Assembly: GCA_964534045.1 (NCBI GenBank)
Contig: CAZHNO010000003.1
Coordinates: 37,323 to 101,322 of the forward strand
Direction: 5' to 3'
DNA from: an uncultured archaeon
Lineage (GTDB): Archaea; Iainarchaeota; Iainarchaeia; Iainarchaeales; JAAZKV01
Length of the DNA: 64,000 bases
The notes below the pieces were generated by a model that saw only the letters and a list, made by a program, of their open reading frames with translations, was not told where the DNA came from and made no database searches. The translations under genes and the position numbers were made by a program. This document shows, in pieces, positions 218-38,444 of this stretch (positions are counted from its first letter, which is position 1; each line of letters starts with the position of its first letter).

Positions 218-847
218 CTAATGCAAAACTTTGTCAATTTCTTGTCTCACTTGCAAAAAAACTTCACCAATTGGTTTATTAGCATCAATAATTTTAATGT
301 TTTCATTTGACAATTTTTTTGGTAAATCATTAAATAAAGTGCGTAAATTTTTTATAAAACCAAGTTGTCTAAACTGATCTGAACTTTTTCTTTTTTCATC
401 ATTTGCTGAATTCATTCTTTTATACGCTTCATCAGGAGAAACATCAAAAATTAAAGCTAAATTAGGTGCCAAAAAATCTTTATGCTTTGAAAAAACTTTT
501 TCAAAATTTGTTCCTTGGACTGTTTGATACGCAATTGAAGAATACTTATATCTGTCACACAAAATAACAAAGTTTTTTTCCAACGCAGGTTTAATTATTT
601 CATTAATATGCCAATCTCTATCCTTTGCAAATAATTCAAACAATTCATCTTTGAAATCATCACTTGTTTTTTGTTTCTTAAAAAGCTCTCTTATTTGCAA
701 ACCAAAGGGCCCTTGCGTTGGTTCATCAGTAATTAAAATATTATCATATTTTTTGCTTTTTTCAAAAATATATTCAAAGGATTTTTTTATTTGAGTGCCT
801 TTACCTGAACCCGGCAAACCATCAAAAACAATAAAAGTACCAGACAT
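218..847 (-). CDS. tmk: Thymidylate kinase family protein (paralog 1)
   Basis: N-terminal P-loop FDGLPGSGKGTQ, TDEP, and LCDRYKYSSIAYQ (DRY..S..AYQ) motifs. Confidence 0.85.
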   Translation of the reverse strand: MSGTFIVFDGLPGSGKGTQIKKSFEYIFEKSKKYDNILITDEPTQGPFGLQIRELFKKQKTSDDFKDELFELFAKDRDWHINEIIKPALEKNFVILCDRYKYSSIAYQTVQGTNFEKVFSKHKDFLAPNLALIFDVSPDEAYKRMNSANDEKRKSSDQFRQLGFIKNLRTLFNDLPKKLSNENIKIIDANKPIGEVFLQVRQEIDKVLH

Positions 848-1219: not shown

Positions 1220-1365
1220 TTAAAAAGACAAGCTTTAAAAAAGAAACTTAAGAGAAGTTTTGTAAAGCTGATTACAAAGTAGTCAACTGAAAATTAATGC
1301 CAACCGTCCAGAAAAGTTCATCGAGCAAAGCGAAGATGGACTGCGTGTCGACGGAGCAAGCCGTC

Positions 1366-1516
1366 GCGTCCGTGATGTAATGGTAGCATAAAAGCCTTCC
1401 AGAGCCTTGTTAAGGCTCGCGAAAGAATTTGCCTATTGACAAGCAATAGGTAGAAAGCGAGTTTAAACAATTGCTGATGTTAGCTTTTTGTCGGGGTTCA
1501 AATCCCCGCGGGCGCA
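1366..1516 (+). tRNA. tRNA-Gly(TCC) with 80-nt intron at 37/38 (intron 1402-1481)
   Basis: Acceptor GCGTCCG/CGGGCGC+A, D-arm ATGT-AATGGT-AGCAT, anticodon stem AAAGC/GCTTT with CT-TCC-A^A, T-arm CGGGG-TTCAAAT-CCCCG; junctions form a bulge-helix-bulge with one U-U mismatch. Confidence 0.93.
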
Positions 1517-1522
1517 CTTAAA

Positions 1523-1650
1523 CAATTTGGGAATGCAAAACCTTTTTCAAAGAGTTCGCAAGCGAAGCATTCAATTTAGGAATGCAAAACCTTTTTCAAA
1601 GAGTTCGCAAGCGAAGCATTCAATTTAGGAATGCAAAACCTTTTTCAAAG
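1523..1650 (+). repeat. 49-bp tandem repeat, about 2.6 copies
   Basis: Unit CAATTTAGGAATGCAAAACCTTTTTCAAAGAGTTCGCAAGCGAAGCATT starting at 1523, 1572, 1621 (one substitution in copy 1). Confidence 0.95.
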
Positions 1651-1712
1651 GGTTTGCGGGTTAAACTACCCGCGAGCGCATATTAAAAAAACATTCAATA
1701 AACTAATTCTTT

Positions 1713-8388: not shown

Positions 8389-8494
8389 TCAAAACACCTA
8401 ACAAAAATAAATACAAAACAATTAATAAATAAATTCAAACTACTTAAATTTTTAAAATACAAACAATAAAATTAAAATTTAAAAAAAATGGAAA

Positions 8495-8550
8495 AGACTT
8501 GTCTGCGAAGCCTCGCACCCGCCGGGCGATGACGGCGTTATGACAAGTCT
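8495..8550. other. GC-rich structured element bounded by 9-bp inverted repeats
   Basis: AGACTTGTC (8495-8503) / GACAAGTCT (8542-8550) enclosing TGCGA-AGCC-TCGCA hairpin; overlaps the lemA stop. Confidence 0.6.
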
Positions 8551-9113
8551 GAAAAATCCACTTTAACGCTTTTTCTTTCTGTTGGAGCTGCTTCAAATGA
8601 TTCTTTTTGTTTATTTTTTCCAAAAGCATTAGCTAAAATGTTTGTTGGAAATTGTAGAATCATTGTATTCCACTTCATTACCATATCATTGTAAAATTGT
8701 CTGGCAAAAGCTACTTTGTTTTCTGTGCTTGATAATTCCTCTTGCAAAGCTTTGAAATTTTCATTAGCTTTTAAAGCAGGATAAGCTTCAGCAACAGCAA
8801 AAATACTTTTTAGTGCTCCAGAAAGCATATTTTCACCTTTAGCTGATTCAGCAGGTGTTTTTGCAGAAAGAATAGCCGTTCTTGCCTTTGTTACTTCAGT
8901 AAGAACACTCTTCTCAAATTTTGCATACCCCTTAACAGTGTCAACCAAATTAGGAATTAAATCCGCTCTTCTTTTTAGTTGAACATCTATTTGAGCCCAC
9001 GAGTTATCAACTTGCTTTTCAGTTCTAATTAGTGAATTATAAGTCAAAACTATCCAGCCAAGAATTACAACAACTAACAATACTATTATTCCAATTATAA
9101 TCAATTCAATCAT
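8538..9113 (-). CDS. lemA: LemA family protein
   Basis: N-terminal TM then YNSL, WAQIDVQLKRRADLIPNLV, AYPALKANENF, ENKVAFARQFYND; GGGGGT RBS before ATG 9113. Confidence 0.95.
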   Translation of the reverse strand: MIELIIIGIIVLLVVVILGWIVLTYNSLIRTEKQVDNSWAQIDVQLKRRADLIPNLVDTVKGYAKFEKSVLTEVTKARTAILSAKTPAESAKGENMLSGALKSIFAVAEAYPALKANENFKALQEELSSTENKVAFARQFYNDMVMKWNTMILQFPTNILANAFGKNKQKESFEAAPTERKSVKVDFSDLS

Positions 9114-23475: not shown

Positions 23476-23501
23476 AAAAAGCAAAATAAGAAACCTTTTT
23501 A

Positions 23502-23657
23502 TTAATTTAAAACTTCAAGCAAAATTAAATATGCATCAATTTTTCCAGAAACACGATTGTGTAATTTAGAATTTGGTAAGAGTTCCTTTTCCAACCCTTG
23601 CAAAAAAACAATTTCTTTATGTAACCATTCTTTTAATTCAATACACTTACAATTCAC
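23502..23657 (-). CDS. Small hypothetical protein (51 aa, GTG start)
   Basis: AAAGGTG RBS then MNCKCIELKEWLHKEIVFLQGLEKELLPNSKLHNRVSGKIDAYLILLEVLN; directly downstream of 23668-23925. Confidence 0.35.
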   Translation of the reverse strand: MNCKCIELKEWLHKEIVFLQGLEKELLPNSKLHNRVSGKIDAYLILLEVLN

Positions 23658-23667
23658 AAAAACACCT

Positions 23668-23925
23668 TTAGAAATTAATCCACTTTTTAAAAATAAAAAA
23701 TGACAAAAATAAAGATAGTAACAAAGGAAATAAACTAAAAATAAAAAGTAATTTTACTAAAACTAAAAAAGCTAATAAAAAAAATAAAGAAATTCCAATT
23801 AAATACACATTTTTTAAAACAAAATCATTAATTTTATAGAAATTCTTTTCCAAAATAGAACAATTCTCTTTCGAATTACAACTTTCACAATATACATACT
23901 CACGTTTCATCAAATCAACTCTCAA
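23668..23925 (-). CDS. Small hypothetical membrane protein
   Basis: CESC...C N-terminus then two hydrophobic segments. Confidence 0.45.
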   Translation of the reverse strand: MRVDLMKREYVYCESCNSKENCSILEKNFYKINDFVLKNVYLIGISLFFLLAFLVLVKLLFIFSLFPLLLSLFLSFFIFKKWINF

Positions 23926-24187
23926 AATTATTAAAATGCACGAACAATTAGTCGTGTTGGGTTAAAAAAAAAACAATTTTCTCACCAAAAATTGTCTTAC
24001 TTTATAACATAAATTAGAAAGATTAAAAAAGCTAACTCAACTTTTTTGAAAAAAAACAAAAAAAAACAACACCGGCATGGAACTCAAAACTAATTTAAAA
24101 ACAAGCCAACAATAATTATACTATTGTGTCAGAGAATTAATTCTCGCCAAGAATAATTCTAAACGGCACAAAAAGAAGGTGATAAAA

Positions 24188-25138
24188 ATGGCGAAAAAAA
24201 TAGAAACAATAACTGATTTGCCCGGGGTGGGTGAAACTGCAGCAAAAAAATTATTTGATGCAGGATATAAAACACTAGAACAAATGGCTGTAGCAAGCCC
24301 AATGGAATTAAAAGAAATTGCTGGTTTAGGGGACGGCACAGCTGACAAAGCAATAAAAGCAGCAAGAGATGCTCTTGAAATGGGCTTTGAGAGTGCTGAT
24401 GTATTAGCTGAAAAAAGAAAACTCGTTGGAAGAATAACAACCGGCTCAACAGAACTAGATACTTTAATTGGGGGCGGAATAGAAACACAATCAATTACTG
24501 AAGTTTATGGAAAAATGGCTTCGGGAAAAAGTCAATGGTGCTTTCAAACCGCAGTAACCGTTCAACTCCCAAAAGAATTGGGTGGCTTAGAAGGAGCTTG
24601 CTTGTATATTGATTCTGAAAATTCATTCAGACCAGAAAGAGTAATACAAATCGCAAAAAAATTAGAATTGGATGTTGATTCAGTTTTGAAAAACATACTT
24701 GTTGCAAGAGCATACAATGCGGATCATCAAATGTTATTAGCAGAAAAAGCATCAGACATGATAAAAGAAAAAAATATTAAATTATTAATTGTTGATTCAC
24801 TAATGGCACAATTCAGAGCAGAATATGTTGGAAGAGGAACACTTTCAGAGAGACAACAAAAAATAAACAAACACTTGAGAACGCTACAAAAACTTGCAGA
24901 AATGTATAATATTGCAGTGCTTGTAACTAACCAAGTAATGTCAAGACCAGATATTTTGTTTGGGGACCCCACAGAACCTGTTGGGGGAAATATTGTTGGG
25001 CACGCAACAAAAACTCGTCTATACTTGAGAAAAAGCAAGGATGATAAAAGAGTTGCAAAACTAGTTGACTCACCATCACTGCCTGATGGAGAAGCACTGT
25101 ATAGAATAACAGAACACGGAATATTAGACGTTGAATAA
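24188..25138 (+). CDS. radA: DNA repair and recombination protein RadA
   Basis: HhH N-domain DLPGVG, GKMASGKSQ Walker A, LLIVDS Walker B, FRAEYVGRGTLSERQQK, GGNIVGH; AAGGTGA RBS. Confidence 0.98.
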   Translation: MAKKIETITDLPGVGETAAKKLFDAGYKTLEQMAVASPMELKEIAGLGDGTADKAIKAARDALEMGFESADVLAEKRKLVGRITTGSTELDTLIGGGIETQSITEVYGKMASGKSQWCFQTAVTVQLPKELGGLEGACLYIDSENSFRPERVIQIAKKLELDVDSVLKNILVARAYNADHQMLLAEKASDMIKEKNIKLLIVDSLMAQFRAEYVGRGTLSERQQKINKHLRTLQKLAEMYNIAVLVTNQVMSRPDILFGDPTEPVGGNIVGHATKTRLYLRKSKDDKRVAKLVDSPSLPDGEALYRITEHGILDVE

Positions 25139-27091: not shown

Positions 27092-27359
27092 TGGACTAGA
27101 CTGGGCCGCCAGCGGTGGCTTGTTACCAGAAATCCGCTTTATGCTGGAGTCGAAGCTGAAGAAGAGGTTTTAATGCTAATGCATTTCGCCAAAGGCAAAT
27201 GTCGAAGCTCTGTCCTTACAGGCCCTTTTATGAAACGAACCCCGCCAGACTCGGAAGAGAGCAACGGTAATTTTATTAGAGAGCGCTGAAGGGTAACGGA
27301 GTGGAGTTTGTGTTTGGAAAGAGTGCACTAACTAGAAATCCATTCTTCAGCACGTCCAC
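27092..27359 (+). ncRNA. ffs: Signal recognition particle RNA (7S), about 268 nt
   Basis: Helix 1 TGGAC/GTCCA; Alu domain GACT/AGTC with UGU motif and AGCGG/CCGCT loop-loop complement; helix 5 CTGAAGAA/TTCTTCAG; helix 8 CCCGCCAG-ACTC-GGAA-GAG-AGCAACGG. Confidence 0.93.
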
Positions 27360-27447
27360 TTGATGTGGTGCTATTACAAATAGCACTTAACCACGTTTCG
27401 GAACCGCCCTACGAAATGGGCGAATCCATTCTTCAGTGTGTCCACTT
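27337..27447 (+). repeat. Direct repeat of the SRP RNA 3' end (25 nt, 22/25 identical)
   Basis: AATCCATTCTTCAGCACGTCCACTT (27337-27361) vs AATCCATTCTTCAGTGTGTCCACTT (27423-27447). Confidence 0.9.
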
Positions 27448-27680
27448 ATTGTAGTTGAACTATTTTCTGGTACATTAGCACAAGATAACAAATACGCACG
27501 CTTAGGGATTATCAATTGGAAAACTTCTCATTGGGCTACCAACGGTGCCCTCCGGCGCCGCCTCACGGAAGGGGCGAGAGAAAGGTTTTTATATCATTAA
27601 AACGTTGATTCTTGCAAGTAATCTTAAAATAAGCAAGTGGCTTATTTTATTAAAAAAATGGATTTAATGGAGGATTATCA

Positions 27681-37580: not shown

Positions 37581-38444
37581 TTATAAATTGTCTAATGGGC
37601 TTTCAACTTTTTTTAATTGTTCACTTGCTACATTTGTGTAAATTTGTGTGGTGTTAAGGCTTGAGTGTCCAAGTAAACTTTGTATATATCTAATATTTGT
37701 TCCTGATTCTAATAAGTGAGTAGCATATGAGTGTCTTAATGAGTGTGGAGTAACATGTTTTGTAATACCTGCTTGTTTAGCCGCCTTTCTAACAATTCTT
37801 TGTATTGTGTCTGTAGATAATTGTTTTCCGTTTTTTTTAGAAAACACATAATCACTTTTAACTTTTTTTTTGTTTAAATATTTTTTCAAACCTTTTATCC
37901 ATTCTTTTGAAAGAATTATTAATCTGTCTTTGTTTCCCTTTCCAGAACGTATCATTGCGGTTCTTTCTTTCAAATTTATATCATCAACTTTTAATTTAAC
38001 AACTTCACTTACTCTACAACCAGAACCATACATAAATTGTAACATTAATCTATTTCTTCCAAACCTTGTGGCATGAAATAATTCACGTATTTCATCTTTG
38101 TTTAAAACTTTTGGTAATGACTTTGCTTTTTTTGGAGTTTTTATTTCATCAACAATATTTTTTTTCAAATATTCTTTAAAAAAGTATTTCATTGCGGCAT
38201 GTATTAAACCTAAAGTAGCATTTGAACATCCATTTTCTTTTTTTTGAGCTAAAAATCCTATCAAATCTCGGCTTGTTATTTCATTTGGATTTTTATCAAT
38301 AAATTTTAGTAGTTCTTTAATGTACATAAGGTACATTTTGAGTGTTTTACTTGAATAACCCGCAATTATTAACTCTTGTTTGAATTCTTTAATCTCTCTT
38401 GCAAATTTTTCTTCATTTGCTTTTGCAGTATAATCATTATCCAT
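37581..38444 (-). CDS. xerA: Tyrosine recombinase XerA
   Basis: SAM-like N-domain; GCRVSE, GKGNKDR, TPHSLRHSYATHLLE, LLGHSSLNTTQIYT. Confidence 0.9.
   Translation of the reverse strand: MDNDYTAKANEEKFAREIKEFKQELIIAGYSSKTLKMYLMYIKELLKFIDKNPNEITSRDLIGFLAQKKENGCSNATLGLIHAAMKYFFKEYLKKNIVDEIKTPKKAKSLPKVLNKDEIRELFHATRFGRNRLMLQFMYGSGCRVSEVVKLKVDDINLKERTAMIRSGKGNKDRLIILSKEWIKGLKKYLNKKKVKSDYVFSKKNGKQLSTDTIQRIVRKAAKQAGITKHVTPHSLRHSYATHLLESGTNIRYIQSLLGHSSLNTTQIYTNVASEQLKKVESPLDNL

Follow-up and report, generated by a model that had tools for sequence, protein, structure and literature searches.

A hairpin-rich tRNA-Gly(UCC) gene in an Iainarchaeum-related archaeon: spacer hairpins of apparently different origin whose shared CAAG loop looks like coincidence

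The closest described counterparts of the locus treated here, a tRNA-Gly(UCC) gene (1366-1516) with hairpins in its leader, its intron and its trailer, come from several systems. The gene lies in a 64,000-nt stretch of DNA from an uncultured archaeon (contig CAZHNO010000003.1 of assembly GCA_964534045.1), which we call the window; coordinates are those of the window, and the features of this locus are on its forward strand. Canonical bulge-helix-bulge (BHB) introns sit one nucleotide 3' of the anticodon, have two 3-nt bulges around a 4-bp helix that is flanked by the anticodon stem and an intron helix, and are dispensable, being present or absent among near-identical genes; the introns described below are like them in position and dispensability, and their geometry appears to fit. 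Typical introns at the canonical site are short, and those found here are longer (69-83 nt in tRNA-Gly(UCC), 90-134 nt in tRNA-Gly(GCC)). They also differ in their rod shape, in a conserved 5' half, in one U.U mismatch, and in belonging to three unrelated families at one site. Transposition of tRNA introns and disruption of tRNA genes have been described in Thermoproteales and in Caldiarchaeum, and for Caldiarchaeum subterraneum a model exists in which an integrating element accounts for the scattering of tRNA fragments and for intron gain (PMC3293823). As in those lineages, we find related introns in different tRNA genes, gene fragments beside intact genes, and gain and loss of introns over short evolutionary distances. 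Unlike there, we see no element that carries a recombinase, the distance between fragments and gene is 40-140 nt and not kilobases, introns occupy the canonical site only, and the lineage is DPANN.

In connection with gene fragments, attachment-site (att) duplications are known at tRNA 3' ends, including those made by casposons (PMC5137440). Both the casposon sites and the SSV- and pNOB8-type att sites resemble our locus in having a direct repeat that runs from the T-arm to the 3' end, with an intact proximal copy and a distal copy followed by the original trailer. In contrast to these sites, there is here no element between the repeats and no adjacent integrase, the distal copies are decayed, and the pattern is also seen at the signal recognition particle (SRP) RNA gene and as tandem arrays. 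Repetitive extragenic palindromes (REP) and bacterial interspersed mosaic elements with their REP-associated tyrosine transposases (RAYT), miniature inverted-repeat transposable elements, Rickettsia palindromic elements and the GC clusters of yeast mitochondria (PMC3184786, PMC4478555) are likewise short, G+C-rich palindromes in an AT-rich genome, polymorphic between relatives and tolerated in non-coding or spliced-out RNA. The hairpins here differ from them in their very low copy number, in having no common sequence and no defined ends or target duplications, and in being restricted to the flanks of stable-RNA genes. Lastly, the split and permuted tRNAs of Nanoarchaeum equitans, Caldivirga and Thermofilum have parallels in a 3'-half-like piece near the tRNA gene and, in one relative (L005), in a leader complementary to intron sequence of two others (L016/L020). 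The gene here, however, is continuous and complete, has no 5'-half partner in the window, and the decayed copy of its 3' end has a T-loop of 6 nt.

We read the locus as an ordinary, functional tRNA-Gly(UCC) gene of an AT-rich, Iainarchaeum-related DPANN archaeon, with three dispensable spacers whose hairpins are of different origin and have a CAAG loop in common by coincidence; we put the probability of this reading at roughly 0.6. The first-pass annotation had identified a tRNA-Gly gene, and Rfam RF00005 indeed matches 1366-1516 with 49.5 bits, against a threshold of 29 bits, over the full model (1-71) and with an 82-nt insertion in the anticodon loop. The acceptor, D, anticodon and T stems all pair, and the anticodon in the 7-nt loop is UCC; the gene is therefore a tRNA-Gly. 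Its first exon (tRNA positions 1-37) covers 1366-1401 and the second 1482-1516, with CCA not encoded. Relatives were sought by an exact scan of metagenome contigs with the last 26 nt of the tRNA, a 3' end that is matched exactly in 23 metagenome loci; one of these (L023) was set aside as a 26-nt 3' end only, beside an unrelated enzyme-like open reading frame (ORF) that is not an integrase. Together with the gene in the closest genome (L003) and that in the window, we compared 24 tRNA-Gly(UCC) loci, in which the exons are identical or nearly so. Nine of the genes have no intron, so that with the same exons the insert is missing precisely at 37/38, and fifteen have an intron at that site, drawn from three unrelated sequence families. 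Two observations concern detection: ARAGORN misses the gene at 1366-1516, probably because of its 80-nt intron, and Rfam at the gathering threshold misses the L003 orthologue. Intron-bearing tRNA-Gly genes in such genomes may thus be under-annotated.

The case for a loop family rested on the recurrence of a CAA(A)G loop on different stems, from which the first-pass annotation had proposed a single protein-recognised or REP-like hairpin family. All the hairpins that it listed are present where it placed them, and some of them are better described in other terms. The 3-bp hairpin TCG-AGCAAAG-CGA (1321-1333) lies within a longer hairpin of 28 nt (1315-1342), and the two downstream TTCG-CAAG-CGAA hairpins are one sequence within a 49-nt tandem repeat and therefore count as one event. 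This leaves three independent CAAG loops and one CAAAG loop at the locus. We scanned all perfect hairpins on both strands of the window and took the expectation for each loop from its tetramer frequency. With stems of at least 4 bp, 46 CAAG loops were seen where 51.2 were expected, and with stems of at least 5 bp 17 against 17.4, so that CAAG ranks 162nd and 122nd, respectively, among the 256 loop tetramers. CAAG loops are thus no more frequent than others among the hairpins of the window, the outcome that the first-pass annotation had itself set against its proposal. The ACAA loops that it had considered related are depleted, at 0.78 times (at least 4 bp) and 0.62 times (at least 5 bp) the expectation.

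Locally, the picture is less even. Three distinct hairpins with a common loop tetramer (stems with at least two G-C pairs) occur in only 6 of 1591 sliding windows, at two loci, and as such sharing is rare the call of coincidence rests mainly on comparative data. The tRNA-Gly locus is also the densest patch of G+C-rich hairpins in the window, and the pattern was picked post hoc. The comparison with relatives goes against a family held together by its loop: loops vary in the orthologous intron hairpins and in the hairpins that abut the 5' end of the tRNA, as described below, the trailer hairpins are tandem copies found at this locus only, and the hairpin CACGA-ACAATTAG-TCGTG at 23939-23956, which had been counted as related, has no related sequence that we could find and no RNA gene detected beside it. 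Nor did a search of 10 ORFs against Pfam, from the 53 of at least 100 aa in the window, reveal an HUH or RAYT gene. The hairpins are real, and their sharing of a CAAG loop looks like coincidence. Had the loop family held, it would have pointed to a new RNA-binding protein or to an archaeal REP-like system. Two parts of the proposal survive in altered form, namely the CAAAG loop, which recurs in tRNA genes of three families as a C-AAA-G hairpin with covarying stems, at a set distance from the TATA box, but is not enriched in the window, and the idea of mobile hairpins, since cassettes behave as movable modules around stable-RNA genes.

The intron is an 80-nt insert of type A (1402-1481) at the canonical 37/38 site, as judged from its boundaries and probable BHB geometry, and it folds as a rod with the hairpin CCTATTG-ACAAG-CAATAGG (1432-1450) at its tip; an alternative hairpin, GAGCCTT-GTT-AAGGCTC, can form at its 5' end (1402-1418). 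Seven unpaired nucleotides per side separate the anticodon stem from an AGC/GCU helix and would provide the 3-nt bulges and the central BHB helix, CUUC (positions 32-35) with GAUG, which contains the one U.U. Where the window intron has GAUG, relatives have GAAG, GGAG or GGGG. The central helix forms under constraint only (-23.8 vs -30.7 kcal/mol). The type A family (alignment A1) comprises introns of seven tRNA-Gly(UCC) and three tRNA-Gly(GCC) genes, which share a 5' hairpin GNNCCTT-NNT-AAGGNNC, a conserved GCGAAAGAATTTG, and a second hairpin with AGAAA after it. Covariation is seen in the stems of both hairpins. The loop of the second hairpin is ACAAG in the window only and UAAA, UAC or UAAU in the other introns; with loops varying on covarying stems, the CAAG loop is therefore best seen as a lineage accident. 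By comparison of the sequences, the stem and not the loop would be under selection, as a conserved structural part of a spliced-out intron. A reading of the intron and of leader hairpin A (see below) as C/D-box, H/ACA or kink-turn RNA was rejected, the boxes being absent: the only C/D-like sequence in the intron is a CUGAUG at its 3' end, inside the BHB helix and with no C box on the 5' side, and Rfam (E up to 10) gave no guide-RNA or kink-turn match at the intron. None of the RNA runs checked for the locus covers it.

The leader has two parts. At its start we find the element TTTAAAAAAG (1234-1243), a probable TATA box by its conservation and position; in the form TTTAAAAA(A/C)G it opens the leader in 20 related loci. 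A hairpin that the first-pass annotation did not list, TGATTAC-AAA-GTAGTCA (1269-1285), has its C-AAA-G triloop 42 nt past the start of this element, and at the corresponding distance (36-50 nt in relatives) hairpins of the form stem-C-AAA-G-stem are present in most tRNA-Gly(UCC) leaders and also in those of tRNA-Gly(GCC) and tRNA-Val(UAC), which carry different promoter sequences. Among 26 such hairpins, 86.8% of cells pair, a percentage inflated by their having been chosen as hairpins; 7 of 7 pairs have changed on both sides, no shuffle of 500 reached the pairing score, and slid registers came nowhere near it. The fixed position and loop, combined with freely varying stems, would be the informative property of this hairpin. 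If transcription starts about 25 nt past the TATA box, it would lie near the 5' end of the precursor. C-AAA-G triloop hairpins as such are not enriched in the window (6 seen, 6.4 simulated), and four other tRNA genes in it have no promoter-proximal hairpin of this kind.

Between the promoter-proximal hairpin and the tRNA lies a cassette of 55 nt (1312-1366) that holds two hairpins. Hairpin A (28 nt, 1315-1342) reads AGUUCAUC / GA / GC-AAA-GC / GA(A) / GAUGGACU, where the outer stem is of 8 bp, the G.A pairs are in tandem and GC-AAA-GC forms the tip. Three related leaders (L008, L011, L019) contain an exact match to the 12-nt core of this hairpin, CGAGCAAAGCGA, and in them the symmetric GA/GA form has no 3-nt bulge, which led us to reject a kink-turn. 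Hairpin B, CGACGG-AGCAAG-CCGTCG (1349-1366), ends on the G that is position 1 of the tRNA. In metagenome runs X1, X2 and X4 all 55 nt recur without a difference ahead of a tRNA-Gly(GCC) gene, with a different upstream flank and with a downstream flank, known from 30-nt contig ends, that reads T-GCGATTGTAGTCTAGTGGCTATGATTCGT, sequence of that gene. Hairpins A and B therefore appear to be one cassette common to the two glycine isoacceptor genes of the organism, copied between them by gene conversion or insertion. The cassette has no further copy in the window. In the closest genome (L003) the gene has the intron and neither the cassette nor the trailer repeats; 16 nt separate its promoter-proximal hairpin from the tRNA, and no hairpin abuts position 1. 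About half of the related loci do have a G+C-rich hairpin ending 0-2 nt from position 1, with loops AACG, ACTGGA, CCGAAA and TTTGAGAA and with stems that differ as well. The region folds better than shuffled controls (z = -5.2), with much of the z-score coming from tRNA and intron. A similarity between the upstream region and the 49-nt repeat unit of the trailer was marginal (z 2.2, p 0.04) and was not used, and a processing helix between leader and trailer was discarded, there being no complementarity in the window and, at one tRNA-Val (L016), a single arm pair that needs wobbles.

In the trailer, a 49-nt cassette is repeated in tandem in 2.7 copies (1523-1654; Tandem Repeats Finder score 250, 97% matches). 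The units begin at 1523, 1572 and 1621 and contain T5 runs at 1543-1547, 1592-1596 and 1641-1645. Their first 30 nt, T5 run included, are essentially identical, and their tails differ: the third unit ends in GGTTTGCGGGTTAAACTACCCGCGAGCGCA and the first two in AGTTCGCAAGCGAAGCA, the latter holding TTCG-CAAG-CGAA at 1555-1566 and 1604-1615. The third unit closes with GCGGGTTAAACTACCCGCGAGCGCA (1656-1680), in which we recognise the T-arm and 3' acceptor strand of the tRNA as a decayed copy with four substitutions and one insertion relative to the last 24 nt of the tRNA, so that 1491-1516 and 1656-1680 form a direct-repeat pair of the tRNA 3' segment. The decayed copy and its downstream flank match the tRNA 3' end and trailer of L012/L019 at 82% over 34 nt (z 5.6-8.4 for the composite alignment), and what follows the copy is ancestral trailer, TATTAAAAAAA...ACTAATTCT, where relatives have the motif TTAAAAAAA ... 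ACTAATTYT. By their position in the unit, the short tails of the first two copies seem to be the same segment minus T-stem and T-loop, a deletion that would have created TTCG-CAAG-CGAA. The intact and the decayed 3' end are separated by 139 nt of repeat cassette, with no integrase gene in between. We conclude that the array and the decayed copy are DNA-level scars of an event at the T-loop, either duplication or integration, after which the cassette was amplified in tandem.

The 49-nt unit is found in metagenome contigs only with the flanks it has in the window, of which it has no second locus. It does have a homologue in the closest relative of the window by intron sequence (L013/L022, two loci of the same sequence), where an 87-nt unit is tandemly duplicated about 240 nt upstream of the tRNA-Gly gene (score 41, z 5.0, p<0.0005). 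That unit contains a TATA-like run, a leader and the displaced first 17 nt of the tRNA, and through its duplication two or more displaced 5' fragments, each with a promoter-like element of its own, lie ahead of the intact gene. The L013 unit has AAAAGGTTCACGAAAA in common with the trailers of both tRNA-Gly genes of L004. Two other interpretations of the trailer were tried and dropped. A second tRNA or split-tRNA 3' half at 1621-1680 has no Rfam hit, a 6-nt T-loop and no 5' partner; the complement of its acceptor, GCGCTCG, occurs in the window within coding sequence only (7682 and 29383). A trailer copy of the intron 3' end, based on the 10-mer TTAAACAATT at 1463 and 1518, is an exact AT-rich match of a kind expected by chance, on a rough estimate, about 0.3 times over a stretch of that length, and the trailers of relatives also begin CTTAAA, which counts against it. 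As a side observation, short-read contigs in Logan (L001, L002) stop exactly inside the 49-nt repeat, and the locus is fragmented in those assemblies as a consequence.

A layout like that of the tRNA-Gly trailer, with a 3'-end repeat, two hairpins and a decayed copy, is present on the forward strand at the SRP RNA gene (27337-27452). The RNA ends at 27361 according to Rfam, and the repeat 27337-27366 comprises its last ~25 nt and ~5 nt beyond. The decayed repeat lies at 27423-27452, with five substitutions in the 24 nt of 27429-27452. Between them are the hairpins GTGCTATT-ACA-AATAGCAC (27368-27386) and CGCCC-TACGAAAT-GGGCG (27405-27422). The first of these belongs to a family GYRCTATY..RATAGYRC, all eight copies of which in ~213 kb adjoin tRNA or SRP RNA genes. 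Within the window the tRNA-Gly and SRP RNA loci alone are affected, and four other tRNA genes are clean. Further downstream of the SRP RNA, at 27500-27585, there is a second G+C-rich (~53%) non-coding stretch, GGGCTACCAACGGTGCCCTCCGGCGCCGCCTCACGGAAGGGGCGAGAG, which has no ORF over it and no Rfam match.

Variation of the same kind recurs across the related loci. The leaders, counted from TTTAAAAA(A/C)G, range from ~60 to ~240 nt and have zero to five G+C-rich hairpins each, and in several trailers a decayed copy of the 3' end of the tRNA comes after hairpins. Such copies, after 40-110 nt of hairpin-rich DNA, are found at tRNA-Gly(UCC) in L005, L011, L014/L015 and L016 and, in the same arrangement, at tRNA-Val(UAC) in L006 and L016; the second copy of L005 comprises an entire tRNA, decayed, and its trailer. 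Pairs of hairpins amounting to 54-57 nt have been inserted in otherwise conserved tRNA-Gly(GCC) introns (L008, L005, L017), and because of these insertions into type A or C introns the introns concerned are 127-134 nt long. Examples of the inserts are GCAAAGC-AAAA-GCTTTGC and ACAAAAGC-AATA-GCTTTTGT. A 3-nt AGG duplication possibly flanks the insert in L005, and across the three introns no consistent insert ends could be defined. Read as its reverse complement, the 31-32-nt end of the L005 leader matches exactly the 31-32 nt with which the L016/L020 intron opens, and the leader as a whole looks like a nearly complete type B intron, inverted and with a further hairpin insert. These comparisons show that in this clade hairpin cassettes come and go, and are copied, among those parts of stable-RNA precursors that are later discarded.

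A plausible course of events at the locus would be as follows. The leader would combine a clade-typical promoter-proximal C-AAA-G hairpin with a lineage-specific 55-nt cassette ending at tRNA position 1. Transcription would begin ~25 nt after the TATA box at 1234 and end at the first T5 run (1543-1547). RNase P, whose Rpr2 subunit is encoded next door, would cut off the leader at 1365/1366, the splicing endonuclease would cut at 1401/1402 and 1481/1482, and CCA would be added after transcription. At the DNA level, a duplication or integration at the T-loop may have moved the original tRNA 3' end to 1656-1680 and left behind a spacer cassette with a T5 run. Tandem amplification of this cassette would have followed, with the T-arm copy collapsing to TTCG-CAAG-CGAA in two units. 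Candidates for what moves the cassettes are gene conversion between paralogous tRNA genes, integrase events with subsequent deletion, and a small mobile palindrome.

Several points weigh against this account. We infer the start site, the cleavage sites and other processing steps, the termination and the DNA-level mechanism that moves cassettes. Between the two copies of the 3' end there is neither an element nor an integrase, and the inserts are consistently small, at about 40-110 nt, unlike what random decay of large integrated elements would leave. The central BHB helix has its U.U mismatch and is not formed in the minimum-energy fold. The local sharing of a loop by three hairpins is rare in the window, and the 55-nt identity at two genes could equally reflect strong functional constraint.

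An alternative that we consider possible, if improbable, is that the hairpins are small non-autonomous palindromic mobile elements which colonise stable-RNA leaders, introns and trailers and may duplicate ~25 nt of the 3' end of their target. The hairpin pairs within conserved tRNA-Gly(GCC) introns would be explained in this way, as would the module of 31-32 nt that is identical but inverted between leader and intron, the identical 55-nt cassette at two tRNA-Gly genes, and the presence and absence of hairpins at orthologous sites. So would the eight out of eight GYRCTATY..RATAGYRC hairpins beside tRNA or SRP RNA genes, and the recurrence, at RNA genes of three kinds, of small hairpin inserts accompanied by a decayed copy of the 3' end. 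The copy number, however, is very low, with two loci affected in the window against four clean tRNA genes, and neither the 49-nt unit nor the 55-nt cassette has other copies there. Terminal inverted repeats or short target duplications could not be defined, the 10 ORFs scanned contain no HUH or RAYT gene, and the hairpin families differ in sequence, so that they do not point to any one element. For the sharing of cassettes, gene conversion among tRNA paralogues is an equally good explanation. A related and more far-reaching possibility, which we offer only tentatively, is that the hairpin cassettes are an undescribed class of module that lives solely in the leaders, introns and trailers of tRNA-Gly, tRNA-Val and SRP RNA, moves in either orientation and inserts at the 3' end with a ~25-nt duplication, with the C-AAA-G hairpin in addition as a conserved signal of tRNA transcription units in the clade.

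It is unlikely, in our view, that the decayed copies are scars of plasmids or viruses which used a tyrosine integrase to enter the segment from T-loop to 3' end of tRNA and SRP RNA genes (GGTTCAAATCCCCGCGGGCGCA in the case of tRNA-Gly) and were then mostly deleted, leaving the hairpins as remnants of att arms. Integration into tRNA genes classically leaves a direct repeat from T-arm to 3' end with ancestral trailer after the distal copy, as is seen here, L013/L022 offer a mirror case with a displaced 5' tRNA fragment and a new promoter, the published model of fragment scattering and intron gain by an integrating element (PMC3293823) is in keeping with it, and the window encodes a tyrosine recombinase (37581-38444). 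Yet the copies are only 40-140 nt apart, a space free of element genes, and inserts of this small size recur in at least eight independent cases. The recombinase gene lies at a distance of 36 kb and its product resembles housekeeping Xer enzymes, and neither the 3' end of the tRNA nor the repeat unit has a match among viral contigs. The second copy in L005, being a whole decayed tRNA with trailer, fits plain tandem duplication.

We doubt most of all that the hairpins are functional RNA signals bound by a protein (a loop-specific site, an element of precursor processing or stability, or a regulator common to both tRNA-Gly isoacceptors), for although the C-AAA-G stems of tRNA genes from three families covary at a fixed TATA distance, two tRNA-Gly genes with differing exons have the 55-nt cassette in perfectly conserved form, a G+C-rich hairpin ends within 2 nt of position 1 in about half of the related loci and the region folds better than shuffled controls, the loops of the intron-tip and 5'-abutting hairpins are not conserved, neither CAAG nor C-AAA-G is enriched in the window, L003 and about half of the relatives have identical exons with no cassettes, the other four tRNA genes of the window have no such hairpins, the trailer hairpins lie past the first T5 run, and the fold z-score comes largely from tRNA and intron.

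With the hairpins read as spacer cassettes of different origin around an ordinary tRNA-Gly(UCC) gene, the locus and its relatives make up a compact natural series: 24 near-identical genes with no intron or with one of three intron families, hairpins inserted in introns, cassettes common to isoacceptors, and displaced 5' and 3' gene fragments. The series bears on how archaeal tRNA introns are gained and on the origin of disrupted and split tRNA genes, matters hardly examined in DPANN archaea. The scars and cassettes at the locus are of known general kinds, and the comparative pattern of modular cassettes and 3'-end duplications is modestly novel. In the literature, of which our coverage was limited, we found, for Iainarchaeota or other DPANN archaea, no account of hairpin cassettes in leaders or introns and none of these families of introns, which is absence of evidence only.

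The 64-kb window is a fraction of one genome, with a G+C content of 29.6%, and encodes an archaeal SRP RNA (Rfam). The genomes closest to it are metagenome-assembled genomes of Candidatus Iainarchaeum, with ribosomal protein S19e identities of 66% (L003) and 46% (L004). On its left, the tRNA-Gly(UCC) locus is flanked by genes for a thymidylate kinase (218-847, minus strand) and a conserved protein of 102 aa (911-1219), and on its right it adjoins the gene for RNase P subunit Rpr2 (1713-2003); a pilin-like gene and the S19e gene are also in the neighbourhood. The tyrosine recombinase at 37581-38444 (minus strand, 287 aa) has a Phage_integrase and an N-terminal SAM-like domain in Pfam. It is encoded 2.3 kb downstream of a tRNA-Met gene, whose 3' end has no repeat in the window, with three ORFs between, the two tested of which had no Pfam match. 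A non-coding G+C-rich element at 8486-8556, within an AT-rich spacer, has an outer stem AGACTTGTC/GACAAGTCT around two hairpins, TGCGA-AGCC-TCGCA and CGCCG-GGCGATGA-CGGCG, and contains GATGA and CTGA motifs; against Rfam (E up to 1) it gave just two weak, chance-level hits. Lastly, an unusually long AT-rich stretch (23480-24190), with no ATG-initiated ORF of 100 aa or more, is the window maximum for the density of A-loop hairpins, and it is here that the hairpin at 23939-23956 is found.

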